This document shows, one piece after another, positions 6,403 through 52,268 of a DNA stretch of 64,000 bases. Position numbers and translations under genes: made by a program. The notes under the pieces were generated by a model, which was not told where the DNA came from, made no database searches, and saw nothing but the letters and a program-made list of their open reading frames with translations. Numbering within the stretch: position 1 is the stretch's first letter; each line of letters starts with the position of its first letter. The DNA is from an uncultured archaeon (lineage in GTDB: Archaea > Thermoplasmatota > Penumbrarchaeia > JASLWR01). The DNA is taken from positions 3,079-67,078 of the forward strand of contig CAYFHS010000002.1 of NCBI GenBank assembly GCA_964342815.1. The letters run 5' to 3'.

Positions 6403-7566
6403 TCATATCACACCGTCGTTGTGCAGTTCCACCACGTCATATCCCAGCTCACCGTATATCACCTCATTGTGCTCCCCCAGTCTCGGCGGGAATGAGAGCT
6501 CTCCGGTTCTCGTTGCCGGTACCGCGGGCGGGGCCAGTTTCATCTCCACTCCGCTCACCGGATCCCGTACACTTGTAAGTTTCCCGGATAGATAATCGTC
6601 ATCCAACACATCTTCCAGCGTCTTCACCTCTGAAACGGGTATGCGTGCGGAACGAAATAGAGTAATAAGCTCTTCCGTTGTATGTTTCGATGTGATGGCT
6701 GCTAGCTCATGGGTAAGTTTATCATTTTCTCTCTTACGCCCCTCGTTGGTACTGTAAATATCCTGCGAAAGTGAGCTGAAACCTGGAATTTCAGTTATTG
6801 ATCTCCACTGAGTATTGTTACCTACTGCAAGAGATACGTAACCGTCCTTCGTTGGATAGACATCAACAGGGGCGAATGTGGGGTGTTGGTTACCCGACTT
6901 GGGCGGTTTCTCGCCCATGCTGGTTGCGGACAACTGGAATGATAGCAGCGACAGAGCGCACTCGGTCATTGATAGATCGATCCTTCGGCCCTCACCCGTA
7001 CGCTCCCTTTGATAAAGCGCCTTCATCACCTCGCAGTAGCCCTGGTTCCCCGCTTCCATGTCAACGATTGAAACACCGAAACGCAGAGGCAGGCTTCCCG
7101 GAGGTCCGTTGGTATCCATCAATCCGGTGTATGCCTGGATCATGGGATCGTACGCGGCCTCGGGACGCTCGGGTCCGAAACCCGATATCCCGAGCCAGAT
7201 CAGGTTTTCACGGACTTCGCGGAGACTATTATAATCCACACCCAACTTTTCGTAACTGGAAGGGATCTGGTTGCATGCGAACACATCTATTTTGAAGTGG
7301 TGGATCAGATCATGAAGTATCTTACGGCCCGTCTCATCCTTCAGATTGAGGGTAATACCGTATTTTCCCGTGTTCATGGGTAGAAAATGAGTGCACATAT
7401 CCTCCTCGCCCAGAACCTTAGCTCCCACCTTCCTGTTGGGATCACCGCGGGTCTGCTCTATCTTTATTACTTTCGCTCCGTCCATGGCAAGACGCCAGGT
7501 ACAGTAGGGAAGCGCCATGGCCTGTTCCACCGCCAACACTGTGGTCCCTTGAAGTAATCCGCCCAC
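6403..7566 (-). CDS. CoA-transferase family III (CaiB/BaiF/formyl-CoA transferase family)
   Basis: 387 aa. N-terminus 'LLQGTTVLAVEQAMALPYCTWRLAMDGAKVIKIEQ' is the typical family III start, and length and later motifs fit. The stop of the upstream hyuB-like gene (7568) directly abuts the start (7566). Confidence 0.85.
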   Translation of the reverse strand: MGGLLQGTTVLAVEQAMALPYCTWRLAMDGAKVIKIEQTRGDPNRKVGAKVLGEEDMCTHFLPMNTGKYGITLNLKDETGRKILHDLIHHFKIDVFACNQIPSSYEKLGVDYNSLREVRENLIWLGISGFGPERPEAAYDPMIQAYTGLMDTNGPPGSLPLRFGVSIVDMEAGNQGYCEVMKALYQRERTGEGRRIDLSMTECALSLLSFQLSATSMGEKPPKSGNQHPTFAPVDVYPTKDGYVSLAVGNNTQWRSITEIPGFSSLSQDIYSTNEGRKRENDKLTHELAAITSKHTTEELITLFRSARIPVSEVKTLEDVLDDDYLSGKLTSVRDPVSGVEMKLAPPAVPATRTGELSFPPRLGEHNEVIYGELGYDVVELHNDGVI

Positions 7567-7567
7567 C

Positions 7568-9298
7568 TCAGTCCCCCCGGGCTCTCTCTGTAGCCTTTTG
7601 ATCCACCTCGTAGGTCTCTGGGTTTACTATCACGCCGTAATCGTTCTTCGCACTTTCGAATGATATTATTCCGTTACGGACCTCTTCCGCCACTATTGCC
7701 GCCGGACGTTTCAGGGGGTTCCCGTAACCACCTCCGCCTCCCGCTCTCTGGGACCAGACGGTCCCCGCAGGAACGTTCTCCACCAGATCCTTCGATGTGG
7801 TCTTGTAGACCCTATCGTCGGGGTAGATAAGATTTATTTTGTTCAACGTGGAATTTTTCCCACCAAAAAGACCGAATGCGGGCTCTACGTCCCCGTCGCC
7901 GAAGGTCACTACCGTGGTATCGTCCGAGCCGATCATGAATTTCGTAATAATGCCCAGACCGCCGCGGTACTGGCCGGCTCCCGCCGAGTCCCGCCAGTAT
8001 TCGTGTTCCAGAAGTAAATGCGGGGTCTGCTGCTCGAACATCTCGTAGTCCTGGTCCAAAACCCCTCCGGAAGCGTCTATCATCCCTATATGATCGTAAC
8101 CGTCCACTCCCTTCGTTGCCCCGGAACCTCCTTTCAATCCCAGAAACACTATGTCCACGAACTTCGCGTCTTTCCTATGGTCCGTTCCCGTGGTCAGACC
8201 GCACAGAAGCTGGTTCCAGCCTGCGGTTATGCGCTCCGGTATCGCACTAGCAAGAGCCCTAATTATGGAATCCGCATTGGGTGGACAGAGATGATTTCCG
8301 AAGGTGGTGGCCTTTGGGTAAGCGGCATTCAGTATGGTACCTTCCGGAATAATGATCCTTATGGGCCGTACCATGCCGTCGTTATGCGGCATGTCCGGAT
8401 TCACCATCTGCAGGAATGTAAGAACCGTAGCAGAAGCGGAAGATGTGAACGTACCGTTGACAAAGCCGTTGGTTTGAGGATCCGTATTCGTGTAATCGAA
8501 AATTATTTCCTGGTCCTTCACCGTTATGTCCACCCTGATCTTGAAACGGGATCCGGGGTGCCTACCATCGTAATACACGTTTGCTTCCCCGTGATACTTC
8601 CCGTTGGGTATGGTCCTTATCTCGGCCCTCATCATCTTTTCCGTGGCCCGGAACAGATAATCCTTGTGCGACTCGAACACTTCGACGCCGTATTTCTCCA
8701 CGAGAGCGAGAATACCCCGCTCACCCACCACGCAGCTTCCGATCTCCGCCCTCATGTCCTCTGCCACTATATCGTAGCGTATGTTGGCGAAGATTAGATC
8801 CCACACGTCCTTCCGCAGCTTTCCCTTCTCGTAGACCTTCACGGGAGGTATCCTCAAAGCCTCCTGCCAGACCTCGGTGGCATTGGGATTGTAGCCGCCG
8901 GCAACATTGCCCCCTATATCAGCCTGATGACCCTTGCAGGCCGCCCAGGCAACTAATTTCTCTTTGTAGAAGATGGGTTTGTACACTGCCACATCGTTGT
9001 TCTGGTTTCCCATTGAAAATACATCGTTGTGGAATATCACGTCCCCGGGATATATCTCGTCGCCGTAGTACTTGAGTATATACTCGCATACCGGCCCCAG
9101 TGAGAATGACAGTATAGGAAGATTCTCGGTCTGTTCGAGCATCTTTCCATTTGCATCATACAGCCCCGTTACGAAATCCTTTGCCTCGCATAGGATGGGA
9201 GAGCGAGTTGTGCGCGCAAGGGCGATGCTCATTTCCTCGGTTATGGATTTGAACCTTCTCTGGAGGACGGAAACCAATATTTTGTCGATCTCGGTCAT
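7568..9298 (-). CDS. hyuB: Hydantoinase B / N-methylhydantoinase B / oxoprolinase (HyuB family)
   Basis: 576 aa with family-typical motifs ('ARTTRSPILCEAKDF', 'MGNQNNDVAVYKP', 'GGGGGYGNP'). Its start overlaps the hyuA stop by 4 nt (ATGA), implying translational coupling. Confidence 0.9.
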   Translation of the reverse strand: MTEIDKILVSVLQRRFKSITEEMSIALARTTRSPILCEAKDFVTGLYDANGKMLEQTENLPILSFSLGPVCEYILKYYGDEIYPGDVIFHNDVFSMGNQNNDVAVYKPIFYKEKLVAWAACKGHQADIGGNVAGGYNPNATEVWQEALRIPPVKVYEKGKLRKDVWDLIFANIRYDIVAEDMRAEIGSCVVGERGILALVEKYGVEVFESHKDYLFRATEKMMRAEIRTIPNGKYHGEANVYYDGRHPGSRFKIRVDITVKDQEIIFDYTNTDPQTNGFVNGTFTSSASATVLTFLQMVNPDMPHNDGMVRPIRIIIPEGTILNAAYPKATTFGNHLCPPNADSIIRALASAIPERITAGWNQLLCGLTTGTDHRKDAKFVDIVFLGLKGGSGATKGVDGYDHIGMIDASGGVLDQDYEMFEQQTPHLLLEHEYWRDSAGAGQYRGGLGIITKFMIGSDDTTVVTFGDGDVEPAFGLFGGKNSTLNKINLIYPDDRVYKTTSKDLVENVPAGTVWSQRAGGGGGYGNPLKRPAAIVAEEVRNGIISFESAKNDYGVIVNPETYEVDQKATERARGD

Positions 9299-11394
9299 TT
9301 GAACACCCTCCCCTTGAACTCTTTTTCGCGGTCCTTAAGGTACATGGTATAACTTCCGTAGCGGTCCGAGGCTACCCGATAATCAGGCGTTACAAAAGTG
9401 CTGGTGTTCACCTGTTCGATCATGGCAGGCCCATCCACAATATTTCCATGTCTGAGATTGAAGCCGTCATACACGTTGACCTTCCGGAACTTGCGTATTC
9501 CAGGGATATAAACTTCTCTCGTACCCTTCAATGCCTTCGCCGGGTCGCTGCCGTCGAACTCCTCTTCCAGGAACTTTGGCTTGTCGGTTCTTCCTATGCA
9601 TGACAACCTCATGTTGATGAGTTCCACGGGCGTTCCTTCCTCCTCCAGCGAATACCCATAGAGCCGGTTGTGTTCCGGATGAAATCCTGTTACCAATGAC
9701 CGCAAATCGCCCTTTTCCACCGCTTCCCTTGTCACAGGCACCGTTACCTCGTGATACTGTTTTACGTATCTGAGGTCCAGTGCGAATCGATATTCGATCA
9801 TCTCCGGCGGAATATGCTCATAGGCAAGCAATCGGTTACCCTCAGCTTCCATCTCACGGAACAATTCCTGGAATCGTTCGATGTCGATCTCATCGAAACT
9901 GGCCGCATAGGTCCGTACGAAATCATGCTTCAGATCGCTCATGAGCATTCCCGCCGCGCAGAAAATAGACGATTCTTTTGGTATTATTATCACGGGTATC
10001 TCCAGCTCGTGGGCGATCTCGCAGGCGTGGATCGGCCCGGCCCCTCCCGCAACCACCAGGGGGAACTCGCGTGGGTCGAAGCCCCGTTTTACGGAAACCT
10101 CCCGCACGCCTGAAGCCATATTGGAGTTAATAACAGAATACATTCCGGCGGCAGCTTCTTCCACACTGAGGCTCAGCTTGTCAGCTATCTGCTCTTTTAT
10201 CGCCGCCCTGGCCTTGTCGTAATTGAGTGGGATCTTGCCTCCAGCAAAGAAATCCTTGTCGAGATAACCCAGTATAAGATCAGCATCGGTACAAGCGGGG
10301 TGCTCACCTCCGCGATCATAACATACTGGCCCCGGAAGGGAGCCAGCGCTCTGGGGACCCATTCTGAGAAGTCCTCCCTCGTCGATCCACCCTATGCTTC
10401 CGCCTCCCGCACCTACGGTGACGATGCCCAGCATGGGCAGTGCCAGGCGCAGGCGGTTTATCTCTCCCTCGGTGGTAACGAGAGGAGTCCGGTTCCGGAT
10501 GAGAGCTGCATCGAAACTTGTACCGCCCATGTCCACGGTAATGCAGTCATCATAGCCTTGTATGGAAGTGTATGCGATTCCTGCGACAGGACCGGCGGCA
10601 GGCCCTGAAAGAAGCGTCACTGCGGCATTGTCCATTGCGATCTCAGGCGATATCACGCCGCCATTGGACTGCATAATAAGGAGAACGCCTGAAAAACCTA
10701 TATCGTCCAGTTTTGCAGTGAGACTCAATAAATAGCTTTTTAGAATAGGTCCGACATAGCTGTTGAGAACCGTGGTGCTGATCCTGTCATAGAACCTGAT
10801 GGATGGCAGAAGATCGGCGGAGACGGTGAGATATTTGCCAGGCATCTCTTTCCGTATGATCTCAGCAGCCTGCTCCTCGTGGGTCTTGTTGGCAAATGAG
10901 TTCATGAAACAGATGGCCACGGCTTCAACATTTTCCTGAATGAAGGTTTGCACGGCTTCGCGGACATCTTCCTCGTTGAGTTCTGTGATGACGTCGCCTC
11001 TGTAATCCAGCCTTCCCTCTATTGGCTGCCTGAGATAGCGGGGTACCAGGGGTTTGACGTTGGTGTATCGATTATTGTACTGCTCTTCGCGGATACCTCT
11101 CCGCATCTCGAGGGCATCGCGGAGGCCCTTGGTGGTAAGCAAACCTGTTTTCGCCCCGGTATAGGTCAGCACGGCGTTGGTAGTGACGGTGGTGCCGTGG
11201 ACTATTATATCGACCTCTTTTATGAAATCCTCAAGTGTCATATTTCTGGTGCAGGCCATCTCGCGCAGGCCATTTAAGAGGCCCACGGAAGGGTCCCGGG
11301 GCGTGGACAGTACCTTGTAGATACTGGATGTTCCGTCATTTTCGGCAAGAAGAAAGTCGGTAAATGTTCCGCCTACGTCAATTCCGATCTTCAT
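9295..11394 (-). CDS. hyuA: Hydantoinase A / oxoprolinase (HyuA family)
   Basis: Canonical N-terminus 'MKIGIDVGGTFTDFLL' when started at the ATG at 11394. The longest ORF extends to 11463, adding 23 non-conserved residues, so I prefer the internal start. Acetate/sugar-kinase fold motifs run throughout. Confidence 0.88.
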   Translation of the reverse strand: MKIGIDVGGTFTDFLLAENDGTSSIYKVLSTPRDPSVGLLNGLREMACTRNMTLEDFIKEVDIIVHGTTVTTNAVLTYTGAKTGLLTTKGLRDALEMRRGIREEQYNNRYTNVKPLVPRYLRQPIEGRLDYRGDVITELNEEDVREAVQTFIQENVEAVAICFMNSFANKTHEEQAAEIIRKEMPGKYLTVSADLLPSIRFYDRISTTVLNSYVGPILKSYLLSLTAKLDDIGFSGVLLIMQSNGGVISPEIAMDNAAVTLLSGPAAGPVAGIAYTSIQGYDDCITVDMGGTSFDAALIRNRTPLVTTEGEINRLRLALPMLGIVTVGAGGGSIGWIDEGGLLRMGPQSAGSLPGPVCYDRGGEHPACTDADLILGYLDKDFFAGGKIPLNYDKARAAIKEQIADKLSLSVEEAAAGMYSVINSNMASGVREVSVKRGFDPREFPLVVAGGAGPIHACEIAHELEIPVIIIPKESSIFCAAGMLMSDLKHDFVRTYAASFDEIDIERFQELFREMEAEGNRLLAYEHIPPEMIEYRFALDLRYVKQYHEVTVPVTREAVEKGDLRSLVTGFHPEHNRLYGYSLEEEGTPVELINMRLSCIGRTDKPKFLEEEFDGSDPAKALKGTREVYIPGIRKFRKVNVYDGFNLRHGNIVDGPAMIEQVNTSTFVTPDYRVASDRYGSYTMYLKDREKEFKGRVFK

Positions 11395-11540
11395 TGAAAT
11401 ATCCCCGTACCGTCTCAATAGTTCGATACTATTTAATTTATTGCTGAATTTTGTAGGGCTCATCCATTTGGGGTGGGATGATAACTCGATACAAAACGTG
11501 TTTTGGATTAAAATTTGGAGGGCCTGCGAGCTTCAAGCAA

Positions 11541-11652: not shown

Positions 11653-14600
11653 TCAATCTCCATCTGTAGATTGAGACGATTCCAGAATGGGTGAAGATCC
11701 CTGAACTTCACTTTCCGGTACTATTTCTGCTGGTTCACTCGGTATAGACGAATTATGTTCGTTCTCAACCACACTTGGAGGGATTTCCTCTTTGGGTGAC
11801 TCTTCTACCGATTCGGTTGGTTCAATAATTTCATCCCCTGTACTTTTTTCTTCGGGAGATACATAATCCTGACATCCTTCACACCAGAAACATTCGTACT
11901 CCGCATAATATTGGGCGAATTGGTCGCAGGTCGGGCAAATTAGGGATGGAACATCTAACATCCTTCTTTTCACAATTTTCGTTACTACCCTTCGTCGAAC
12001 AACCTTTCGGTGGGTTTCTCTAACCGGCGTAAGTGTTGCCGCTCTCTCCGCTTTATCCGTGGTTTCTGTATCAGGAACGAACAATATATTTTTACGCTTT
12101 CTTTTTATGATGATTAGAACAATTAATACTCCAACTATCAAGGCAAATATGATAAGTGGTATAGTGATCCAGAAAGGAAGTTGAGAACTGGTGGTTGCAC
12201 TTTGTTCAGAAGTATCATCGTCCGTGTCATCATCGTCATTTGGTAGCCAAGCAGCGATAACAACAATATTCAACGTATCTGCTGCATCATTTCCCTCCTT
12301 ATCCCTTACTTTTAGGTCGATGGTGTAGTTTCCGGGGATATTGAAAACAAACGATGGCTTTGGACCGTAAAGGAGTACATTGCTATTGTTATATAGGAAT
12401 GACCATGTATAGTTCATTATTCCGACATTATCCTTGCTTCCAGTTCCGGTAAGGACTACGACGTCTCCCTCGTCAATAGTTATGTCCTCACCTGCTATAG
12501 CAGTCGGAACCGTGCTGTCTCTGACGGTCACATTGAGATGATCGCTATGCCAGTTTCCCGCTGAATCGGTGATATTTAATATTATGTAGTACGTACCGGG
12601 TTCATCGAACGTAAAGCTCGGGGACGATCCGTAAAAGTTTTTCTCTATATCGTCGAAGATAATTGTCCAGGTGTGATTAATCACTAAAACGTTATCATAG
12701 GAACCACTGCCATTTAAGCTCACCAATTGCCCCTGGTCAATAACAATGTCATTACCGGCAACGGCGACCGGGGGAGTGATATCCCGTACCGTTATATTCA
12801 GAAAATCAGCAGCCCAATTTCCCTCTTTATCGCTTATATTCAACGTAATAGGGTATATTCCAGGTATATGGAACGTGAAATCTACAACTTTTCCTTTAAG
12901 CGTTTTCTCGATTCCGTTGTAAGTAAAATTCCATATAAATTCTTCGATATCAATATTATCGCTACTGTTTGTCCCGTTAAAGGTAACCTCCTGGTGCTGG
13001 TCTATGATAATATCCACGCCTACCTGCGCAACCGGGGATATAACGTCTGTGACTAATGCTTTGGTTTCAATAGTAATTAATTTATTACTAGCATCATCAC
13101 TAACGATGAAAGAATAATTGACAGAAATTGCATACATATCAACCTTGAAATTGCCTGACCATGTATCTCCGGAAATACGTGTCAAGTGCTCAGTTTCGTA
13201 ATTCTCACCGTCGAAGGTATAATTCACATCAACCACAGTAACACCGATATTATCCTTAACATTCACAGAGATATTGAATTTCTCCCCTGTTTTAGGTATA
13301 TCCGTTGTTTCATCCTCTATTAACCATGGGGCATCATTGTCGAGGACTACCTTCTGCGGCTTGCCTGTATTGAGTATATTCCCGGCTTTGTCTGAAATAT
13401 AAAATCGATATATTAGATGGATTGCATCAGAAGGAATGGTTATGGAGGTATTCCACAAACCTTCGTTGTCAAGGTTCATGATATCGCTTTGATAGCTAAT
13501 ACTATCGAAAGTATACCTAACCGACACGCTTGTCACACCGATGTTATCGCTGGCATCTAGCAGTATTGTGTATGGATCGCCGGTTGTTGGCAACCCTATT
13601 GTTTCTTCTCTTCCAAATATAGGTTTATCATTGTCCGAAATGGTTACTATTCCTGGGTTCATTGGATCGGTGGAATATGAGTTGCCAGAGATATCATAAA
13701 TTAAAAATCCATAGTATATCACAGTGGCATTGGGACGAACGGCACCGATGGTGAATTGCCAAGCATATTGTCCCAGGTAAGACATCGACGAAGTAAGTGG
13801 ATTCTCTCCGAAATCGTAAAACCAAATTACATATACCTTGGCTGGATCCAATCCAATATTGTCCGAAAAGTGTGTGGAGAATGTCAAAGGTTCGCCGGTT
13901 GTTCCCGTACTATCCGTATCGTCACTGATGATAAATGGGATATCGTTATCGACTACTGACAAGATATCCGATATGGTCTTATTTTGATTGTTAGACGTAT
14001 CATTTACCCAGAAGTAATATTCAAACGAGAAGGCATTATCTGGAATAACGATAGTAATTGACCACATATTTTCCGTATTGTTATTTACAGACCAGTTAAA
14101 ACTTTGACCCCGATTGATGATAAAATTGAACATTAATTGGTCGACACCTATGTTTTCTGTGATGTTGATGGTGAATAACGCAGAGTCACCAGTGGTTACT
14201 GTACTGTTCCATTTCGTTCCAAACAGAGGACGATCGTTATCCCTCACATTTACTGTCCGTTTATTATTTAATATATATTTTCCAGAATTATCTATAACGG
14301 AAACATTATAGGTCAGATTTCCCAGGTCATCATGAAGGAAGATTGAACCACACCAACGACTAATTCCAAAATAATTGGTTTCACTTAAATTAAGGTTTAT
14401 ATTTCCACTTGAATTACCATGTGACCACATAATTGTAACAGTTGAAATAGTGGCATCATTTAGAATAGACAGATTAAATTCAAAACGATCCCCTGTGGTT
14501 CCATTTGAGTTGGTATAATCATTAATGAGGATAGGATATTGATTACAACTACTGGAAATTTGCGAATAATTATCATGAGCACAGGCAGTACCAGGAATTG

Positions 14601-15741
14601 TATATGAGATATTCCAAACATAACCATTATTGTTAGAATTTGGATATCTTGTTAGGTAATCCGACCAATAATTCCCTTTGTCAAAACTATTATTCCATGT
14701 GTTGTTAAAACCATTATCTTTGGCCTGTACATTATTCCCATTATTATTTTTTAAAACGTTATGATGAACAGTATTGTTTTCCCACATTCTATCGTAAAAC
14801 TGAATCCCTACACCTGTATTATTATCAATAACATTTGAAAGAATTGAGCAATGATGGGAAATATAATTATTCCTGCGACAATTTATTCCAATATCGTTAT
14901 TATTACAATAGTTATTATAAATTAAAACCATTTCACAATGATTTTCAATTATTATTCCAGAGTTAGTATTATCCATACACCGATTATTTCTAATGATGGT
15001 TTTTTCTCCCGAATAGGAATAAATACCTCCTGCACCTATATTAGAATAACAAAAGTTATTCTCAATTAAATTACATTTCGACAGGGACTCACCGATACCT
15101 CCATTATAATCATTATTCCAACAAGTGTTATTTGATATTCGATTATAGTTAGACCAATGAAGGCGTATCCCTGTTTTTTCGTTTGAAAACACACGGTTGT
15201 TATCGACGACATTATATGATGATTCCGATAACTGGAAGCCCCCATCTAAATAGATACCAAAATAGTTATGGTGCACAACACAATTAGTAATGTTATTATA
15301 ATAAGATTTTATATCAATGCCTGCATCGCGATCCGGAAGATATTGAGAACCACTATTGGTAATGTTAAAACCAGTCAAATTGACCCAATTCGCTGTAATT
15401 AGCACAACATCACCATTACCTTCAGCATCAATGATAGTATCAGACCCCCCATTGCCAATAAGTGTTAGCGTTTTATTAATCAGCACATTCTCATTATAAG
15501 TTCCCGCCCATACGTGAATTGTATCACCAGCATGAGAAGCATTTACTGCATCTTGTATTGTAGTGAAATCTTGCCCACCATCATCGTCAACAATGATGGG
15601 ATTTCCCCGAGTTCCCGACATATGAGTATCAACATGTTCTATTTTCTTGGTGGCCAAACTCTCTTTATCATATGGCATTAGGAATCCCATTGAACCCGTA
15701 AGCAGCAATGCGATCGTTACCAATACTATTATCTTTCTCAA
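11653..15741 (-). CDS. Giant surface protein: signal peptide, right-handed beta-helix (NosD/pectate-lyase-like) domain, at least five Ig-like repeats, three PKD domains, poly-Asp, TM anchor, cytoplasmic four-Cys zinc-ribbon tail
   Basis: 1362 aa. 'DDDGGQDFTTIQDAVNASHAGDTIHVWAGTYNE..LTLIGNG' is a classic parallel beta-helix start. PKD units of the type 'VAVAGNDIVIDQGQLVSLNGSGSYDN..WTI'. TM 'FWITIPLIIFALIVGVLIVLIII' (12106-12174) is followed by KRKRK. Tail 'CPTCDQFAQYYAEYECFWCEGCQDYV' at 11860-11939. Confidence 0.85.
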   Translation of the reverse strand: MRKIIVLVTIALLLTGSMGFLMPYDKESLATKKIEHVDTHMSGTRGNPIIVDDDGGQDFTTIQDAVNASHAGDTIHVWAGTYNENVLINKTLTLIGNGGSDTIIDAEGNGDVVLITANWVNLTGFNITNSGSQYLPDRDAGIDIKSYYNNITNCVVHHNYFGIYLDGGFQLSESSYNVVDNNRVFSNEKTGIRLHWSNYNRISNNTCWNNDYNGGIGESLSKCNLIENNFCYSNIGAGGIYSYSGEKTIIRNNRCMDNTNSGIIIENHCEMVLIYNNYCNNNDIGINCRRNNYISHHCSILSNVIDNNTGVGIQFYDRMWENNTVHHNVLKNNNGNNVQAKDNGFNNTWNNSFDKGNYWSDYLTRYPNSNNNGYVWNISYTIPGTACAHDNYSQISSSCNQYPILINDYTNSNGTTGDRFEFNLSILNDATISTVTIMWSHGNSSGNINLNLSETNYFGISRWCGSIFLHDDLGNLTYNVSVIDNSGKYILNNKRTVNVRDNDRPLFGTKWNSTVTTGDSALFTINITENIGVDQLMFNFIINRGQSFNWSVNNNTENMWSITIVIPDNAFSFEYYFWVNDTSNNQNKTISDILSVVDNDIPFIISDDTDSTGTTGEPLTFSTHFSDNIGLDPAKVYVIWFYDFGENPLTSSMSYLGQYAWQFTIGAVRPNATVIYYGFLIYDISGNSYSTDPMNPGIVTISDNDKPIFGREETIGLPTTGDPYTILLDASDNIGVTSVSVRYTFDSISYQSDIMNLDNEGLWNTSITIPSDAIHLIYRFYISDKAGNILNTGKPQKVVLDNDAPWLIEDETTDIPKTGEKFNISVNVKDNIGVTVVDVNYTFDGENYETEHLTRISGDTWSGNFKVDMYAISVNYSFIVSDDASNKLITIETKALVTDVISPVAQVGVDIIIDQHQEVTFNGTNSSDNIDIEEFIWNFTYNGIEKTLKGKVVDFTFHIPGIYPITLNISDKEGNWAADFLNITVRDITPPVAVAGNDIVIDQGQLVSLNGSGSYDNVLVINHTWTIIFDDIEKNFYGSSPSFTFDEPGTYYIILNITDSAGNWHSDHLNVTVRDSTVPTAIAGEDITIDEGDVVVLTGTGSKDNVGIMNYTWSFLYNNSNVLLYGPKPSFVFNIPGNYTIDLKVRDKEGNDAADTLNIVVIAAWLPNDDDDTDDDTSEQSATTSSQLPFWITIPLIIFALIVGVLIVLIIIKRKRKNILFVPDTETTDKAERAATLTPVRETHRKVVRRRVVTKIVKRRMLDVPSLICPTCDQFAQYYAEYECFWCEGCQDYVSPEEKSTGDEIIEPTESVEESPKEEIPPSVVENEHNSSIPSEPAEIVPESEVQGSSPILESSQSTDGD

Positions 15742-24062: not shown

Positions 24063-27000
24063 TTAATCCTCGTCCAGCCCTTCTGCCAGTTCACCAATCA
24101 GCCTACGCGAGCGGACCAGGCGTTTTATGTAGATTATCAAAGAGACCACAACAAATATGAACAGTAGAGCGGCTCCGGCGATAAAGGGCCGGATATCCAA
24201 TTCTTCCTCACCCGCCGCATTGTTGGAAGAGCCCTGATGGTTCACAGAAATTCGCATCGTCAACTTCCGAGTATATTTCATTCCGTCGAAACCACGTACC
24301 GATATCGTATGAGCACCGTTCTCAAGTTCTATAACGTCCACCTTGAGAGTATACTTCCGATGCTGATCATCCTGTTTTTTCCAGGTGATCCTGTCATGGG
24401 TCATTGTTTCCCAGCGCCCGTCGTCGATCTTCACATCTATCTTCACCGGTCTTCGAAAATCATCCTCCATGATAACAGTTACCACCGCATTCACTGAGAC
24501 CTCCCCGCCCCCGCCTTCCAGTACGGACAAAGAAGGCTCGATATCCCTCCAGGTGACGAATATTTTCAAGGAGAATTCGGTGCTGGATCTACCATCATCG
24601 TCAACGGCTGTGAGGTGGATCGTGTGGTTGCCGTAGGAAAGCCCGGATTCGACCACAAGTATCTCACCGGAACCCAGCTCACCGTCCAGATCGGACCGCC
24701 AGTTGAATTCGATTACGATCCCATCAGGGTCCTCACCCTGGGCCTTCAATATAACCGGATCACCTTCCACGGGGAATTCCGGCTCATAAGATTCGATGTA
24801 ACAGGTGGGAGCAGCATTCGGCTGCTTTACCACATGGGTTCTTTTCACAGGAACTGACTCCAGTCCTAGCTCATCCGTTACCATGAAACTTATAGTATGT
24901 GTACCCGAAACTAGAACCGAGGTGAATTCAGGTTCCTTGGAAAGAAGACCACTTATGTCCGAGTGCCATCGATATTCCAATATCTTGCCGTCAATATCCT
25001 CTCCGCTGCCGCGAAAATAGACTGGTTCATCATTATCGGATGGTGAAGGAGATATCTCCTCTATCCTTGCTACAGGTGCGCTGTTCGGTCCAATTATCGT
25101 AAGAGCAGTATGAACCTCGGGGGAGACGGAGCCCTCATCGTCAGTTACACTGAAGAATATGATGTGATCCCCAGTGGACATTTCACTGGCATCCAGTGTG
25201 AATTCCATCAAATCCGAGAGCACTCCGTCGATACTTGAACGCCAATGGTATCCCGAAATACGTCCGTCCGGATCTGTCCCGGTCCCAACGAAACTAACAA
25301 TATCCTCACCCTGCTTTGCCGGAGACGGTGAGACGGATTCGATCACGGCAGCAGGAATTTGGTTCGGTGGATATATGACGGCAATGTTTTCACTTTCCAC
25401 GTCCCGGCTCACCGCCCCATCACTATCCATCACCTGCAGTGTAACCTTATAATCGTCCGGTTCGTCATATATGTGGACAGCGTTGGATTCCAATATCCAC
25501 CCAGTATTGGTCCCGTCGCCAAAATCGAAAAGGTACTCGGTAATCCTTACGTCATCTGTGGAACCCGAACCATCTGCATTGATCTCTTCTCCCACCAAGG
25601 CGTCCGTGGTGGAAAGAGTGAGCACCGGCTCGGGAAGTTCATTACTGGTGCGTATAAATATCTCCGCAACAGCGAGATTGTTCTCCTGGCTATCCTCAGG
25701 GGGCACCACATCCTTCAGAAGAGCCTTGATATAATGCAGGTCTCGCAGGTCCCCGGTATCGAGTTCACAGGAGAAGGTCGCCTCTTGCATGGATAAAAGG
25801 TTCACGATGGGGATGGGGGGAATAATCAACGAATGATCTTCCATTTCATCAAGGTACACATGTAGCGAAGCATTCTCTATAAGGCCCATACCCAAGTTCT
25901 TTACAGTAATGTCAATATCTACGATGCTGCCGGCAATGGGATGGTCATCGGACAAACGCAATTCCGCAACGGTAATGTCAGGGGTGTCGAGCGGTTCGAC
26001 CAGGGTTATTTCCCGGTTCACCTCGACACCACTAATGTTATGGGACTTCCCCGGCCCCCAATACACAGTGATATCCACAGGTCCTTCATGACCCCCCAGT
26101 CCGAAATCGAGGGGCAGGGAATTCTGCTGACCGTGAGCACCCATTCCTCCCTCTACTTCTTTGATATAAAAATTGTTGCCGGTATTTACCTTCACCCGGG
26201 CGCCAATGCCGAAGGAATTATGGGTCGTCCCCTGAAGATTGATCTTTATCCAGTTATTGTCGTGGGGCAGTTTATTTTCGAATAACCTGACCTCGTAAGT
26301 ACCGTTTTCGAAGGGGTATTTTCCCGCTGTCAACAGGTCCGTCATACCGTCGTTGTTGTAATCGCACCACGATGAAGCATACGTGTCCCAGACCCTCACG
26401 CCCGCCATCTCGGTAACGTCGGTGAAGGTGCCGTCCCAGTTTCCGATATAAAGGAAAGAATAGGCATAGCCCACATCTCCATATACCTGCGGCAGGTAGA
26501 TGTCAAGATAACCGTCGTTGTTGAGATCGTCCCAGGCACATCCCACGAACAATTCGTCACCCTGGTTCGGGGCCACATAGGGTTTTATGGGGATTCCCGC
26601 CGAGCTGCGGACGTTGGTGAAGCTGTAATCGGGTGCGCCGTCGTTCCGGTATAAAAGAGAATCGTCCGAGGTCCTCCAGTCCTTGTGGTTGAGATTGGTC
26701 ACCCAAAGGTCGAGGTCGCCGTCATTATCGTAATCACCCCACAGGGCTCCCACACCGTGGCCTGGTCGGTCATATGGGTCAGGGTTCTCGCCGGTTCGGG
26801 AAGGAGCGTCGGCAACGTTCTTTTCGGCAGCCACATCCGTGAAGGTGCCGTCACCGTTGTTCTCGTAGAGATAATTCAACTGCTGCCGGTAATTTGCCAC
26901 ATAGAGGTCCAGCCATCCGTCATTGTTGTAATCACCCCAGATCACCCCTCTTGAATAGCTTTTATGAGCCGATTCGTCCACACCTGCCTCGAAAGTAGTG

Positions 27001-27635
27001 TTCGAAAAGGTTCCATCCCCGTTGTTCCGGTACAGCCGATTTGAATAATATACTGCGTTACCGTCGTTCCAGTTCTCGCCTCTGGCAATATAGAGGTCCA
27101 AAAAGCCGTCGTCGTCATAATCTCCCCAGGCGCACGCAGTGGTATGCGAATGGCTCTCGATACGGGAACCGACTGTAGCGTCTGAAAACTTGAAATCCCC
27201 TGACTGGCCCGGACCTTCGTTGTGCCATAATTTATTGGAGCCCTCCATGTAGATATCCAGTAAACCGTCATTGTCATAATCGGCCCAGGTGCCGTGACCG
27301 CCACCAGACAGGCCGACGGAAGCAGTTGTTTCTCTGAAACGCCAGGCAGGAGGACCGCCATTCCTGAAAAGCCTGCTCTCGGCCAGAAGGTCCTGGTACC
27401 CGTCATTATCATAATCGCCCCAGGCAAAGAAGTTACCGCTGACACCGGCAAGACCCGCCCGCTGGGTGACATTCGTGAACCAGGGGCCATCCCGCGTACC
27501 TTCAAAACGATTAATGTCGTTCATATCTGGAAAAGAGCGTTCTTCTTCGTTTTGCTGCTGGACTTCCGGAGATGTCCAGGCCAATATCAGGAACATAAAA
27601 AACAGAAAAAATGTCGTGACTCTTGTGAACTTCAT
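24063..27635 (-). CDS. Giant surface protein: FG-GAP/VCBS beta-propeller repeats plus ASPIC/UnbV domain (CRTAC1-like), CARDB-like domain, four PKD/Ig-like domains, C-terminal TM anchor
   Basis: 1190 aa. Signal 'FFLFFMFLILAWTSP'. Seven 'GDYDNDGxxDLy' FG-GAP Ca-binding repeats. 'FGIGARVKVNTGNNFYIKEVEGGMGAHGQQN' matches the ASPIC/UnbV signature. TM 'FIAGAALLFIFVVVSLIIYI'. The start overlaps the stop of the upstream gene by 4 nt. Confidence 0.85.
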   Translation of the reverse strand: MKFTRVTTFFLFFMFLILAWTSPEVQQQNEEERSFPDMNDINRFEGTRDGPWFTNVTQRAGLAGVSGNFFAWGDYDNDGYQDLLAESRLFRNGGPPAWRFRETTASVGLSGGGHGTWADYDNDGLLDIYMEGSNKLWHNEGPGQSGDFKFSDATVGSRIESHSHTTACAWGDYDDDGFLDLYIARGENWNDGNAVYYSNRLYRNNGDGTFSNTTFEAGVDESAHKSYSRGVIWGDYNNDGWLDLYVANYRQQLNYLYENNGDGTFTDVAAEKNVADAPSRTGENPDPYDRPGHGVGALWGDYDNDGDLDLWVTNLNHKDWRTSDDSLLYRNDGAPDYSFTNVRSSAGIPIKPYVAPNQGDELFVGCAWDDLNNDGYLDIYLPQVYGDVGYAYSFLYIGNWDGTFTDVTEMAGVRVWDTYASSWCDYNNDGMTDLLTAGKYPFENGTYEVRLFENKLPHDNNWIKINLQGTTHNSFGIGARVKVNTGNNFYIKEVEGGMGAHGQQNSLPLDFGLGGHEGPVDITVYWGPGKSHNISGVEVNREITLVEPLDTPDITVAELRLSDDHPIAGSIVDIDITVKNLGMGLIENASLHVYLDEMEDHSLIIPPIPIVNLLSMQEATFSCELDTGDLRDLHYIKALLKDVVPPEDSQENNLAVAEIFIRTSNELPEPVLTLSTTDALVGEEINADGSGSTDDVRITEYLFDFGDGTNTGWILESNAVHIYDEPDDYKVTLQVMDSDGAVSRDVESENIAVIYPPNQIPAAVIESVSPSPAKQGEDIVSFVGTGTDPDGRISGYHWRSSIDGVLSDLMEFTLDASEMSTGDHIIFFSVTDDEGSVSPEVHTALTIIGPNSAPVARIEEISPSPSDNDEPVYFRGSGEDIDGKILEYRWHSDISGLLSKEPEFTSVLVSGTHTISFMVTDELGLESVPVKRTHVVKQPNAAPTCYIESYEPEFPVEGDPVILKAQGEDPDGIVIEFNWRSDLDGELGSGEILVVESGLSYGNHTIHLTAVDDDGRSSTEFSLKIFVTWRDIEPSLSVLEGGGGEVSVNAVVTVIMEDDFRRPVKIDVKIDDGRWETMTHDRITWKKQDDQHRKYTLKVDVIELENGAHTISVRGFDGMKYTRKLTMRISVNHQGSSNNAAGEEELDIRPFIAGAALLFIFVVVSLIIYIKRLVRSRRLIGELAEGLDED

Positions 27636-35951: not shown

Positions 35952-38039
35952 ATGAAAAGGACTGCAACGATAATAATGGTTACACTTGCATTGCTAAGTA
36001 TGTCGATGATTTCGAATAACATTTTCGGAGTTACTCCGGGTGATATCGAAGATCCGGTGGCCAATGCCGGAGAAGATAAATGGGTTGAGCAGGGTGGCAT
36101 CGTAACTTTCAACGCCAGCAGCAGCACGGATAATGTGGGCATCATATACTACACGTGGACGTTCACTGACGTAGATGAAAAGATACTTTACGGCCAGGAG
36201 GTGAATTATACCTTCAACAATGCCGGGGACTTCCTTGTAACCCTGAACGTCAGCGACGCGGCGGAGAATTGGAACATTGACACTATTACGGTGACAGTGA
36301 TGGATAATACCTCGCCAACTGCGATTGCAGGAGAAGATCTGGTGGCAGACCTGAATGCGGAAATCACCTTCGACGGAACTAATTCCACCGATAACGTGGG
36401 CATCATAAATTACACTTGGATTTTCAACTACAATGGTAGTGAAATAAATCTGTATGAAGAGATTGCAACCTTCGTTTTTGAGAAATCCGGAAACTACTTG
36501 ATCACCCTCGAAGTGCGGGACCATCACGGGAACATGGGTATGGACGAGTTCTGGGTTAACGTAACCGGTGAGGCAGACGCGGAAAACCCTGTGTGTGACG
36601 CAGGTGCGGACAAAACCGTTATCGTAGGTTCACAAGTCACGCTGGACGGCGGCGCATCGACGGATAATATCGGGATAAATGAATGGACATGGACATTCAT
36701 CTACAACGGAAGCGAACGGGTGTTATACGGAAAAACGGCATATTTCATCTTCGAAATTACTGGTAACTATTCCATCACCCTTGCTGTGGCAGATGCTTTT
36801 GGCAACTCCGATAACGACACGATATGGGTCAATGTGACCGAGACAATAGCAGTTGATACAGTAGCACCGGTGGCAAAAGCAGGTGTAGGCCGAACAGTCG
36901 ATAACGGAACAATGGTCCAATTCGATGCCGGTGCGTCCACGGATAATATTGGGGTCGTCAACTGGACATGGACGTTCACCTACAATGGTTCGGGGTACGA
37001 GCTGTACGGTAAAACGATATCATTTCGTTTCGATTTTGCCGGGAATTACACCATAACTCTTGCAGTGGCCGATGCTGCAGGAAATCTTGATACCGATACA
37101 ACTTGGATCAATGTTACCAAGCCTGCAACTTCGGATACCGTGGCACCGGTGGCGATTGCGGGGGTGGACCGGACTGTGGAGCTAGGAACGCTGGTCCAGT
37201 TTGACGGTAGCGCTTCTACAGATAATATAGGGGTGATAAACTACACTTGGACGTTTACTTATGATGGTGTAGTGCAGAAATTATACGGTGAAAAACCGAG
37301 TTTCAGATTCGATACTTCAGATAACTATTCGTTAACTTTAAGTGTATTGGACAAAGCTGGCAACCAAGGTGAGAGCAATTTTTTTGTTCAAGTAAAGGAG
37401 GGGGCCCCTCAACCTTTCACTCTTGGTCCCTTTATGGATAAGGATGGAAATCCCGTCGAGGGTCTGGATGTGACCATAACTATTGTCGGCACAGAATATA
37501 CTGAAAAAACCAATGAGAACGGCAAATCAACCTTCCATAACACGCCTTCGCCTCAAAATGATGATCCTGTGGTTGTTAAACAGGATGGTTTGGTCGTCTT
37601 TGAAGGTAAATTTAGCGAGTCAATGAAAAGCAGCCTGCTTTCCAAATCAAAAGAACCCGAAGATTTTTTATCAAAAGTACCGTGGCTGTGGGTTGGTGTA
37701 GCTGGAGGCGCTCTGCTGCTGATAATCATCATAATCATAGTGATCAAAAAAAGAAGGAATTATGATGACGACGACGATGACGATGATTACGAGTACGGCG
37801 AGTTCATCGAGACGAAAGCCTGCCACAAGTGCGGCGAGCTGTTACCGACCTTTGACACCAAGTTCTGTCAGGAATGCGGCGAGGATCAGGACCCATTTAG
37901 CGGCCCCACAATCACCAAAGAGGAAAAACTGTGTGTAAAATGCTACGTTCCGGTATTACCTCCCGACTCACCGTTCTGCCAGAACTGCGGAGCAAACCAG
38001 CAGTCCATTGCGGGAAGCGAACAGGGAAGGGGCTTTTAA
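35952..38039 (+). CDS. Surface protein: signal, five PKD domains, carboxypeptidase-regulatory-like domain, TM anchor, poly-Asp, cytoplasmic double zinc-ribbon
   Basis: 695 aa. Five units of the type 'GEDxxV...VTFDGS-STDNVGIINYTWTF'. TM 'WLWVGVAGGALLLIIIIIIVI'. 'DDDDDDDDYEY'. Two CxxC-x13-CxxC units (CHKCGELLPTFDTKFCQECG; CVKCYVPVLPPDSPFCQNCG) at 37821-37991. Confidence 0.85.
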   Translation: MKRTATIIMVTLALLSMSMISNNIFGVTPGDIEDPVANAGEDKWVEQGGIVTFNASSSTDNVGIIYYTWTFTDVDEKILYGQEVNYTFNNAGDFLVTLNVSDAAENWNIDTITVTVMDNTSPTAIAGEDLVADLNAEITFDGTNSTDNVGIINYTWIFNYNGSEINLYEEIATFVFEKSGNYLITLEVRDHHGNMGMDEFWVNVTGEADAENPVCDAGADKTVIVGSQVTLDGGASTDNIGINEWTWTFIYNGSERVLYGKTAYFIFEITGNYSITLAVADAFGNSDNDTIWVNVTETIAVDTVAPVAKAGVGRTVDNGTMVQFDAGASTDNIGVVNWTWTFTYNGSGYELYGKTISFRFDFAGNYTITLAVADAAGNLDTDTTWINVTKPATSDTVAPVAIAGVDRTVELGTLVQFDGSASTDNIGVINYTWTFTYDGVVQKLYGEKPSFRFDTSDNYSLTLSVLDKAGNQGESNFFVQVKEGAPQPFTLGPFMDKDGNPVEGLDVTITIVGTEYTEKTNENGKSTFHNTPSPQNDDPVVVKQDGLVVFEGKFSESMKSSLLSKSKEPEDFLSKVPWLWVGVAGGALLLIIIIIIVIKKRRNYDDDDDDDDYEYGEFIETKACHKCGELLPTFDTKFCQECGEDQDPFSGPTITKEEKLCVKCYVPVLPPDSPFCQNCGANQQSIAGSEQGRGF

Positions 38040-46014: not shown

Positions 46015-47031
46015 ATGAGAAAGTTAACCGTATCCTTAATAGTATTTCTGATGGTATCAATTGCCTTAACTGAAGCAAACCGGGTTAACGCTCATGCGAA
46101 TCCTGCTGATAAAAACGAGCCATACGTCGTTAAAAACCGATTACTGCTGGAATCAGCCAAGATAGCCGATAAAGGCATGGAAGCCGCGAAAAACATGTTG
46201 ATCAGAGCGTTTTCGGAGAACATCACCGAGGCCGACGTCGTCCGTGCCATAAACGATGCCATGACGGATGAAGGCTCGAGCGAATATGTGGAAGCCTTTG
46301 GCGTTATCGTGGCGTCGGGGGAGCAGTCGGCCATGCCGCACGGTGACACAAGCGACGATGGTACCAACTTAATTCTTCCGGGCGAGGTTGTAGTGGTGGA
46401 TCTGGGTGCGAGATATAGGGGATATTGCTCGGACCTGACGAGAACCTTCTTCATGGGAAATGCAACCCAGGAAATGATGGATATCTACAATATAACGTTG
46501 GAGGCACAGGTTGCCGGCATCGAGGCCGTGAGAGCCGGGGTTTGGGCAAGGGATGTGGATAAGGTGGCCAGAGATATTATATCCGGTTACGGTTACGGCG
46601 ATAATTTTACCCACGGTCTCGGGCATGGAATAGGTCTATACATACACATGCCGCCCATCCTCAGCCCTAATAGCGACGGGATATTGTTTAAAAGCGGCGA
46701 TATGACCATCACCATCGAGCCGGGGATCTACCTGGATGGAAGATTCGGGATCAGGATAGAGGACGATGTCTTCGTTCTGAGAACCGGATATGAGTTGTTG
46801 ACCTTCTATCCAAAAGGTATCGAGAACGCTATTCTGTACCCTGATACCATATCGAACGATTCCCAAAGTACGGGTGAAGAGAATGAGGAGGCAGTGGGGG
46901 AAAATGGTCTATTGGGGGTATTGGGTGAGATATTTTCGAACGGTGTTGTGATAATTATTTGTTCGGTAGCAGTCGTTATGATAGTTGGGTTGGTGGTCAG
47001 GAAAAGGAAAAATAGGGAGAAGGAGGGGTAG
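46015..47031 (+). CDS. M24-family metallopeptidase (Xaa-Pro aminopeptidase/prolidase-like) with N-terminal signal and C-terminal TM anchor
   Basis: 338 aa. 'HGLGHGIGLYIHMPP' and 'GDMTITIEPGIY' are M24 pita-bread-fold metal-ligand motifs. N-terminus 'VSLIVFLMVSIALTEA'. C-terminal 'GVVIIICSVAVVMIVGLVV' followed by RKRK. Confidence 0.8.
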   Translation: MRKLTVSLIVFLMVSIALTEANRVNAHANPADKNEPYVVKNRLLLESAKIADKGMEAAKNMLIRAFSENITEADVVRAINDAMTDEGSSEYVEAFGVIVASGEQSAMPHGDTSDDGTNLILPGEVVVVDLGARYRGYCSDLTRTFFMGNATQEMMDIYNITLEAQVAGIEAVRAGVWARDVDKVARDIISGYGYGDNFTHGLGHGIGLYIHMPPILSPNSDGILFKSGDMTITIEPGIYLDGRFGIRIEDDVFVLRTGYELLTFYPKGIENAILYPDTISNDSQSTGEENEEAVGENGLLGVLGEIFSNGVVIIICSVAVVMIVGLVVRKRKNREKEG

Positions 47032-49241: not shown

Positions 49242-50159
49242 ATGGTTCCGGAAAAAATGACTGGCATTACTTATTGGGTAAAGGAAATATTCGGGGGACG
49301 CCGATTCTACAAATTGGGGTTTATTTTTCTTGTTGCAGTTACCGTCGCTATGATGTGTTCTATATTTGTTACAAGTGATATGGAAAAAAATAGTGATAAA
49401 TTTGAGATTATCAAATCAATCCAGCCTACGGACGAGCCTGTGATAATAGATACCCGCGCCGATGAGGGCTGCCCGGCCGGCGGTGCCGTGAATGGTAACC
49501 AGGAATACTCATGCGGGAGTGCTTGCCATAATGTGCAGAGCGTTTCGAATGTGGTTTTAAGTTCATCCTACCAGACCCTTTCACCCGGGGACACCATTAC
49601 TGTTTCAGTAAGAGTTACCGGTGCAGAGACCGATAGTACCCCTTTAGGCGTGTTCCTGGTAACAAGCCTGTCATCCGAGATGAGCCAGCCCAGGGATGAA
49701 GGATGGGAAATATTATCGGACCCCGGCGGTTCGACGAGTTATAATTATTATCTGAAAGATGCCGTTTATGGCGGTGGGGCATGGACGTGGACCCTCAAGG
49801 CCCCTGAGAATCCGGGGACGTATTATCTCTATGCAAGGGAACACCATGGAAACGGGCAGAAATACTGGCAGGAAAACACGAATGGGCTGAAATTCGATGT
49901 TATCGAAAGGGAAAGTTCCGGATCAGGTTTATTGATTCTGTTATATGTGTTCATGGGTCTCATCATGAGTGTCTTCGCTATTTTGATCGTTTATGCAATC
50001 CGGAAACACGACTCATCAAAAAAGGCCGGGCAAAGGGATTCCCAGGATCTTTACGAAGACGGCGAAACGATGATCGAATGCCCCAAATGCGGCTGTTCGC
50101 TAAAGGCAAAGAATCGTAATCGACATGAGAGAAGATGCACAATTCGCAGACGGTACTGA
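49242..50159 (+). CDS. Membrane protein: N-terminal TM, Cys-containing extracellular domain (CGSACH motif), C-terminal TM, cytoplasmic Cys-rich (zinc-ribbon-like) tail
   Basis: 305 aa. TM 'LGFIFLVAVTVAMMCSIFV'. 'EYSCGSACHNVQS'. TM 'LLILLYVFMGLIMSVFAILIVYAI'. Tail 'CPKCGCSLKAKNRNRHERRC'. Confidence 0.55.
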   Translation: MVPEKMTGITYWVKEIFGGRRFYKLGFIFLVAVTVAMMCSIFVTSDMEKNSDKFEIIKSIQPTDEPVIIDTRADEGCPAGGAVNGNQEYSCGSACHNVQSVSNVVLSSSYQTLSPGDTITVSVRVTGAETDSTPLGVFLVTSLSSEMSQPRDEGWEILSDPGGSTSYNYYLKDAVYGGGAWTWTLKAPENPGTYYLYAREHHGNGQKYWQENTNGLKFDVIERESSGSGLLILLYVFMGLIMSVFAILIVYAIRKHDSSKKAGQRDSQDLYEDGETMIECPKCGCSLKAKNRNRHERRCTIRRRY

Positions 50160-51273: not shown

Positions 51274-51287
51274 AAGGACGCAGTACA

Positions 51288-52241: not shown

Positions 52242-52268
52242 CATAATAACGAAATATATGGGATACTT

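Follow-up and report, generated by a model that had tools for sequence, protein, structure and literature searches.

Surface proteins of archaea are commonly viewed as being held passively by a single helix. A 64,000-nucleotide stretch of DNA from an uncultured Thermoplasmatota archaeon (positions 3,079 to 67,078 of contig CAYFHS010000002.1, assembly GCA_964342815.1; hereafter the window) raises the question whether some of them are also handled from inside the cell. Two large surface proteins encoded in it, here named P1 and P2, carry a similar cysteine-rich motif of 26 residues in the tails that follow their single transmembrane (TM) helices. Is this likeness real, what kind of domain does it represent, on which side of the membrane does it lie, and what might it do there? 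We find that the motif is a conserved module and not a chance resemblance, and computation identifies it as a zinc ribbon exposed to the cytoplasm.

Two Copies of a Conserved Module

The window (46% G+C) has a high density of genes encoding secreted or membrane-anchored proteins of very large size. The first copy of the motif, CPTCDQFAQYYAEYECFWCEGCQDYV, occupies positions 11860-11937 of the minus strand (residues 1269-1294 of the 1362-residue P1, gene 11653..15741, minus strand), and the second, CPKCSKSAQYYPEYKCHWCIGCQDYV, positions 45685-45762 of the plus strand (residues 959-984 of the 986-residue P2, gene 42811..45771, plus strand). Both are in frame within long open reading frames (ORFs) with domain support, and a six-frame scan of the window returned these two copies, a double zinc ribbon at 37821-37988 that is discussed below, and nothing else. 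The initial annotation located both copies correctly apart from one boundary each, its limits at 11939 and 45768 overshooting by 2 nt (part of the preceding Ile codon) and 6 nt, respectively. Its description of a nearly identical four-cysteine motif ending both proteins needs more adjustment. The shared motif is real, but the identity is 18 of 26 residues (69%; 19 of 27 with the preceding Ile), and each window copy contains five cysteines, of which four occupy the positions that are invariant in the family. Only P2 ends in the motif, with just Leu-Asp behind it, whereas in P1 it is followed by an acidic, Ser/Pro-rich extension of 68 residues (11656..11859, minus strand).

Different codons are used at 8 of the 18 identical residues. 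By the Nei-Gojobori method, the proportion of differing synonymous sites is saturated (pS 0.99) and that of nonsynonymous sites is low (pN 0.20); hence, the likeness of the ribbons has been kept by purifying selection on the protein. The saturation also rules out recent gene conversion or copying as the source of the resemblance.

Both proteins have the layout of type-I surface proteins. In P1, a signal peptide (a signal-like N-terminal segment) is followed by a NosD/right-handed beta-helix region, Ig-like repeats, three PKD domains (Pfam NosD, Beta_helix, and PKD_4), a poly-Asp stalk predicted to be extracellular (12202-12240), the TM helix (residues 1188-1212; 12106..12180), and the tail, which starts with KRKRKN (12088-12105; all on the minus strand). 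P2, with domains likewise assigned by Pfam, consists of a signal peptide, a novel N-terminal region, Big_9/cadherin-like repeats, one PKD domain, a poly-Asp stalk predicted to stand just outside the membrane (45175-45222), the TM helix (residues 821-849; 45271..45357), and a Pro-rich tail made up of KKKRKDEEE (45358-45384), a Pro/Ala/Thr-rich linker of 100 residues (45385-45684), and the ribbon (all on the plus strand). Both TM helices were assigned by hydropathy and positive-inside counts. The identity of P1 and P2 by BLASTP is about 21%, and the gapped alignment is limited to the Ig/PKD parts. The ectodomains are different, as had been stated in the initial annotation, except that both have a membrane-proximal PKD domain.

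An exact look-up of the P2 sequence found no database record. Word-indexed homology search, in which three shared 5-mers are needed, yielded no matches for the short motif or for motif alignments, and a 173-residue tail used as the query matched only a Joint Genome Institute fragment (P0004), borne by short, uninformative contigs.

A Zinc-Ribbon Family With Two Types of Members

A profile built from just the two window sequences was searched exhaustively against 1.84 billion representative proteins. At E<=1e-3 it matched 59 proteins, with E-values of single-copy matches down to 1.9e-12. The matches form two classes, a tail type (approximately 40 clusters; consensus CPxCGxxSxYYPEY[DE]C[YFH]WCxxCQDYV, which both window copies fit) and a general type (approximately 20 clusters; consensus CPxCGxxxxY[IV]xQYxR[YWH][WY]CxxCxxY). 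Conservation at the level of 70% or more extends to 16 of the 26 columns in the tail type versus 7 of 26 in the general type.

The 99 family instances share just four residues without exception (C1, C4, C19, and C22); Y25 comes close to invariance. The two CxxC knuckles thus supply four putative zinc ligands, as expected of a zinc ribbon. Of 34 tail-type instances, 30 have the fifth cysteine (position 16) and the other four have Ser, Arg, or Ala in its place; the general type has Arg or Lys there, which rules this cysteine out as a zinc ligand. AlphaFold2 supplied with the 99-instance alignment gave a model with a mean predicted local distance difference test score (pLDDT) of 82, a core at 91-93, and strands at positions 13-17, 22-25, and 30-32; the single-sequence run of the tail was uninformative (pLDDT 51). 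In a fold comparison, this model returned only ribbon folds, including TFS4, RPB9, TFIIB, TopoI, and Dof. Among solved chains, the eS31/S27a ribbon comes nearest in sequence, with a score on the borderline (E=0.0016, 21 bits). The model and the cysteine pattern together identify the motif as a C4 zinc ribbon of 26 residues with a three-stranded antiparallel sheet, in line with the initial annotation, and we infer that it binds zinc.

The ribbon belongs to an uncatalogued family. The window tails match no Pfam family at E<=1, and their matches to the curated NCBIfam models are at chance level (E>=0.29). The 99 instances give weak matches scattered over 173 generic ribbon families, none of them dominant. 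For Ribosomal_S27 (PF01599), 19 of 99 instances match weakly (best E 4.3e-4), below the cutoff of 22.3 bits; whole tandem proteins score 26.3 bits solely by summing their copies. DUF7564 (PF24445) is matched in register by 16 of 99 instances (best E 1.2e-3; P0006, E=0.28), below its cutoff of 32.2 bits, and DZR, Zn_Ribbon_1, and Zn_ribbon_3 match neither window tail. A description of the domain or of the architecture was not found in the literature either, in line with the initial annotation, which knew of no described function.

Protein Architectures and Membrane Topology

Tail-type ribbons occur as single copies in proteins of 500-2500 residues, the exception being a protein from a metagenome-assembled genome (MAG) that adds a general-type copy (locus L010). 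The ectodomains of these proteins include NosD/beta-helix domains, PKD arrays, Big_7/Big_13, TSP3 and FG-GAP repeats, and Kre9-like and transglutaminase-like domains. In a set of 44 proteins that includes those of the window and of the MAG loci, the ribbon stands 55-140 residues (median 71) beyond the last TM helix, with a further 2 to more than 300 residues between it and the C-terminus. Tail-type matches lacking a TM helix are short fragments at contig ends, except P0014 (185 residues), which may be a complete soluble protein.

One tail-type protein, P0040, has another order: a Ser/Thr kinase domain (Pkinase, residues 34-284), the ribbon (328-353), KKRSKK and a TM helix (434-452), and two FGE-sulfatase (SUMF1-like) ectodomains with TSP3-like Asp-rich repeats between them. 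This receptor-like protein contains the sole enzymatic cytoplasmic fusion partner seen for the tail-type ribbon.

The general type usually occurs as 3-10 tandem copies joined by acidic, Pro-rich, or Lys-rich linkers in proteins without a TM helix, some of which have TPR repeats or helical N-terminal regions; in others, two or three copies are located on cytoplasmic parts of membrane proteins. Labels given by the sources are generic: two of the MAGs are labelled bacterial (WOR-3 and 'Desulfuromonas sp. SDB'), and further sources are Thermoplasmata or Euryarchaeota MAGs. The tail type is one branch of a broader ribbon family that also occurs in soluble tandem proteins, some of them from MAGs labelled bacterial, and the module is therefore not intrinsically a tail signal of membrane proteins. 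The expectation that a profile of the two tails would find TM-anchored secreted proteins was borne out by the 44 proteins mentioned above, but it does not cover the wider family. The highest copy numbers (9-10 ribbons) were observed in P0001 and P0002, which come from the two MAGs labelled bacterial. The last ribbon of each is a Cys-richer variant, e.g., CPKCGVELARCHPCKKYWCQQCDQCY.

That the tail-type ribbon faces the cytoplasm, as the initial annotation had predicted, is indicated by three independent lines of evidence. In the 44 proteins, the 15 residues after the TM helix contain on average 4.6 Lys or Arg, as against 1.0 in the 15 residues before it, in accordance with the positive-inside rule. 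The ribbon of P0040 is on the same side of the membrane as a kinase that requires ATP. Finally, N-x-S/T sequons for N-glycosylation are enriched approximately twofold in the ectodomains of P1, P2, and the window protein with the double ribbon (41 vs. 24 and 22 vs. 11 expected) and essentially missing from the tails. A site of four cysteines holding zinc also fits the reducing cytoplasm. All of this puts the ribbon inside the cell.

Distribution and Lineage

The tail-type pattern was sought in 185,579 bacterial and archaeal species, each represented by one genome. It was found in only two MAGs, both from related archaea, and is thus confined to one narrow archaeal lineage. These are 'Thermoplasmatota archaeon ETNP2_MAG_1', with nine loci, each on a contig of its own, and 'Uncultured archaeon SRP077602_co2_347', with three loci and four copies, one of them truncated. 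Among 241 million metagenome records, the tail type occurs in a single metagenome, whose nine loci mirror those of ETNP2_MAG_1. A tenth locus (L024) was rejected as a false positive, EYESFWCDVC being a chance match that lacks the first knuckle. No relative of the ribbon was detected in a scan of viral contigs.

The window comes from a relative of ETNP2_MAG_1 that is of a different species: the two share 85% nucleotide identity over only 1.3 kb. P1 and its ortholog in locus L001 are 70% identical overall, and their ribbons match at 24 of 26 positions. P2 and its closest homolog (locus L008) are collinear and 32% identical from end to end, and their ribbons share 17 of 26 residues; hence, conservation of the ribbon is roughly double that of the remainder of P2. 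Since the counterparts in L001 and L008 have kept the ribbon, the paralogs predate the split of these lineages. The overall picture is that of a domain shuffled onto approximately ten paralogous surface proteins per genome within a small clade of marine Thermoplasmatota.

The ends of the tails may have been exchanged as well. The core of the acidic extension of P1, GDEIIEPTESVEESPKEE, recurs unchanged in a paralog (L002) and not in the ortholog (L001), a pattern suggestive of mosaic exchange between the tails of paralogs. P1 stops at ...DGD*, and both MAG proteins end in ...DGDLSSLKQ*; a 1-nt difference beside the stop would explain the shorter end of P1. Two broken copies were also noticed. 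At L012:7956-8105, the ribbon is truncated or frameshifted, with the first CxxC missing in frame, and at L009:7848-8150 it lies in a 100-residue ORF approximately 500 nt after an ORF of 2053 residues. Both are probably pseudogenes or assembly errors.

Possible Roles of the Ribbon

We propose, in agreement with one option of the initial annotation (zinc-dependent binding to a common cytoplasmic partner), that the tail-type ribbon is a lineage-specific protein-protein docking module on adhesin-like tails, and assign to this reading a probability of about 0.5. A disordered linker of 55-140 residues joins the ribbon to the lone TM helix by which these large, glycosylated, adhesin-like surface proteins are anchored, and this zinc-stabilised, acidic, aromatic-rich domain would dock a protein partner. 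Many different surface proteins could in this way engage one shared cytoplasmic component, i.e., a scaffold, an adaptor, or a signalling protein, and the docking would anchor, cluster, or report on them. We infer that such a shared partner exists. A docking role is favoured by the conservation of the 26 columns, which far exceeds what the fold alone needs; by the long disordered tether, which is typical of fly-casting interaction modules; by the acidic character of the tail-type ribbon (mean net charge -2.7); and by the occurrence of relatives in multivalent soluble TPR or helical proteins and beside a kinase.

Several observations weigh against docking. An all-versus-all comparison of ORFs in the 12 loci and the window revealed no recurring neighbour gene as a candidate for the partner, and the fused domains, save for the one kinase, point to no specific pathway. 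In so small a domain most residues may be structural, and this could account for part of the strong conservation. Among solved structures, the closest relatives (the ribbons of eS31, TFS/RPB9, TFIIB, and TopoI) for the most part make contact with nucleic acids or polymerases. Besides, with the tail type found in just two or three genomes, inference from phyletic profiles is impossible.

The acidic charge would also suit an arrangement in which no separate partner is needed, with ribbons binding basic RRRVVKK peptides or other ribbons on neighbouring tails so that the proteins gather in patches. A KKVVRRRVVKK-type peptide is present in at least nine ribbon-bearing tails and terminal in seven or more of them; in P1 (HRKVVRRRVVTKIVKRRM, 11959..12012, minus strand) and its ortholog, it is situated in the linker just upstream of the ribbon, and other examples come from L005, L007 (two genes), L011, P0033, P0045, and P0051. 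Throughout the approximately 250 kb of window and loci, this peptide is nearly confined to ribbon-bearing tails, an extra case being a 1628-residue ORF in L008, and soluble relatives with 3-10 ribbons are what one expects of multivalent cross-linkers. However, most ribbon tails, including that of P2, have no such peptide, and the basic stretch may be a mere membrane- or RNA-binding patch, so that tail-to-tail clustering seems rather doubtful. A purely passive role, in which the zinc-locked fold is a structural knob that stabilises or retains the single-pass anchor, e.g., against extraction or proteolysis, would make sense for huge ectodomains held by one helix, as they are in these organisms. 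The unrelated DZR and C2HC-like ribbons in the same place on other window tails suggest, moreover, that any small metal-bound fold may serve. Yet a knob has no need of 16 conserved positions out of 26 across paralogs with unalignable linkers, nor of a location 55-140 disordered residues away from the membrane; most anchored window proteins do with short tails and no ribbon, and the same domain recurs in soluble tandem proteins and next to a kinase. We therefore consider the knob unlikely.

The relatives listed above also bring to mind binding to nucleic acids, ribosomes, or polymerases, in which case RNA, DNA, or the machinery of translation or transcription would be tied to the membrane by the tail, or a tail released by proteolysis would regulate genes. 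The closest solved sequence, the eS31/S27a ribbon, and the fold matches to TFS4, RPB9, TFIIB, TopoI, and Dof are in line with such a function, as are source labels of the S27AE or DUF1610-like kind on some general-type relatives. The mean net charge of -2.7 argues against nucleic-acid binding, and we judge this role quite improbable. As for a signal for sorting, secretion, or membrane insertion in surface-protein biogenesis, which the initial annotation had listed among possible functions, the near exclusivity of the tail type to signal-peptide proteins with a C-terminal anchor is what such a signal would produce. Its position is far too variable, however: the distance to the C-terminus ranges from 2 to more than 300 residues, and the ribbon precedes the TM helix in P0040. 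PGF-CTERM and other archaeosortase-type signals, in contrast, consist of a short motif, a TM helix, and a few basic residues at the extreme C-terminus, and the ribbon does not conform to this pattern. Given also that soluble tandem proteins bear the same domain, that approximately nine other C-terminally anchored surface proteins of the window lack it, and that export of the ectodomain is over before the ribbon leaves the ribosome, a sorting signal is very hard to sustain.

Docking, if correct, can be extended into a broader scheme, which we regard as speculative. The ribbon might couple the adhesin-like repertoire (beta-helix, PKD, cadherin-like, FG-GAP, and TSP3 ectodomains) to an intracellular scaffold or to kinase-linked signalling, as an archaeal zinc-ribbon counterpart of the coupling between integrin or cadherin tails and their adaptors. 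The RRRVVKK and acidic Leu-rich terminal peptides might then be further tail codes, and the soluble multi-ribbon and TPR proteins might act as multivalent adaptors.

Comparison With Known Systems

The closest catalogued relative is eS31/S27a(e) (PF01599), a C4 ribbon with the same knuckle spacing, the second half of which resembles the general-type sequence CPKCGxxxxYIEQYDRYWCxxC. It is a ribosomal protein that contacts rRNA, whereas the tail-type ribbon is acidic, has Cys in place of Arg, and is found on tails of membrane proteins. The similarity to the ribbons of TFS/RPB9, TopoI, and the N-terminus of TFIIB/TFB is one of fold class, as judged by score, and their context is entirely different. 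In location, the nearest parallels are DZR (PF12773), Zn_Ribbon_1 (PF13240), and Zn_ribbon_3 (PF13248), small C4 ribbons carried in the cytoplasm by single-pass proteins that have domains outside the cell, such as the 35952..38039 product. These ribbons conserve little besides the cysteines, are usually N-terminal, and have largely unknown functions; the tail motif differs in its rich aromatic signature, C-terminal position, and narrow lineage.

Two further systems are analogous in the way they work. Zinc-binding anti-sigma (ZAS; zf-HC2) factors have a cytoplasmic zinc module that holds a partner on a single-pass protein and so connects the exterior with the interior. The two are unrelated in sequence (the sole NCBIfam match was at chance level, E=0.38), and the ZAS module, in contrast to the ribbon, is N-terminal, has an HxxxCxxC motif, and binds a known sigma partner; to our knowledge, no archaeal sigma factors exist. 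In the integrin-talin and cadherin-catenin systems, proteins with repeat ectodomains (FG-GAP, cadherin-like, Ig/PKD) and one TM helix recruit a common adaptor by a short conserved tail element shared among paralogs. Again there is no homology, and the eukaryotic tails use linear motifs instead of a zinc ribbon; we know of no archaeal adaptor for such tails.

There is nothing unusual in the fold as such, nor in a ribbon on the cytoplasmic part of a membrane protein, an architecture known from DZR, Zn_Ribbon_1, and ZAS. What is new is the sequence family with its tight signature and the systematic placement on approximately ten adhesin-like tails per genome in one narrow Thermoplasmatota lineage. 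Strong selection on a ribbon borne by about ten unrelated surface proteins per genome implies that the cell reads, organises, or holds these proteins from within. A partner, if there is one, would offer a first entry point to the organisation of the adhesin coat in wall-less or S-layer-poor marine Thermoplasmatota and would be relevant to the question whether adhesion is connected with the cell interior in archaea. The interest of the finding is limited by a commonplace fold, by a lineage that is uncultured and rarely sampled, and by a function that is only hypothetical. As a clean searchable marker, the motif nonetheless defines a class of proteins, and the family comprising tail-type and tandem general-type ribbons could be added to domain databases.

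Other Tails and Neighbouring Genes

Approximately eleven window products are single-pass proteins anchored at the C-terminus. Two of them carry the ribbon described here, one a double zinc ribbon, and one a possible C2HC site, and most have short tails without a ribbon. The double ribbon (37821..37988, plus strand) is in the tail of a 695-residue protein with five PKD domains (35952..38039) and belongs to a different family, scoring 26.8 bits against the DZR cutoff of 27.3 and matching Zn_ribbon_3 and Zn_Ribbon_1. Between its TM helix and the double ribbon is a poly-Asp run, DDDDDDDD (37746-37820, plus strand), predicted to be cytoplasmic. The 49242..50159 product, which has no family match, ends after its TM helix in CPKCGCSLKAKNRNRHERRC (50079..50138, plus strand), a possible C2HC-type metal site by its sequence. 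Both proteins had been singled out in the initial annotation and are as described there; the ectodomain-TM-zinc module that it proposed does recur in the window, but it draws on at least two unrelated ribbon families.

Acidic Leu-rich C-terminal peptides also recur in the MAG loci, namely ...LDSMLDDLLVGL*, ...LDDMLGELLEGL*, and ...LEDLLDDMDSLFD* (L006:2-3808, L006:3935-5410, and L004:1-2790), and the window product 24063..27635 (minus strand) has an acidic Leu-rich ending, too (...RRLIGELAEGLDED*). In L006, one and the same ending is common to a ribbon-tail surface protein and the adjoining soluble protein, which has a general-type ribbon at its N-terminus as well as TPR repeats and an extended P/Q-rich region. 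The shared ending and this soluble protein are a possible second tail code or adaptor.

A metabolic cluster (6403..11463, minus strand) is located directly downstream of P1. Its 722-residue product resembles, without reaching the curated cutoffs, caprolactamase subunit alpha and acetophenone carboxylase (hydantoinase A family) and is accompanied by a hydantoinase-B-like and a CoA-transferase-like ORF; blastn detected no similarity between the cluster and the MAG locus L001. By reading its sequence, the 46015..47031 product (plus strand) looks like an M24-type aminopeptidase or prolidase with a signal-like N-terminus and a C-terminal TM helix followed by RKRKNREKEG, and it would be a membrane-anchored extracellular peptidase. 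Three tandem paralogous genes for proteins of approximately 310-325 residues (50296..53195, plus strand) resemble, by eye, medium-chain dehydrogenases or quinone oxidoreductases.

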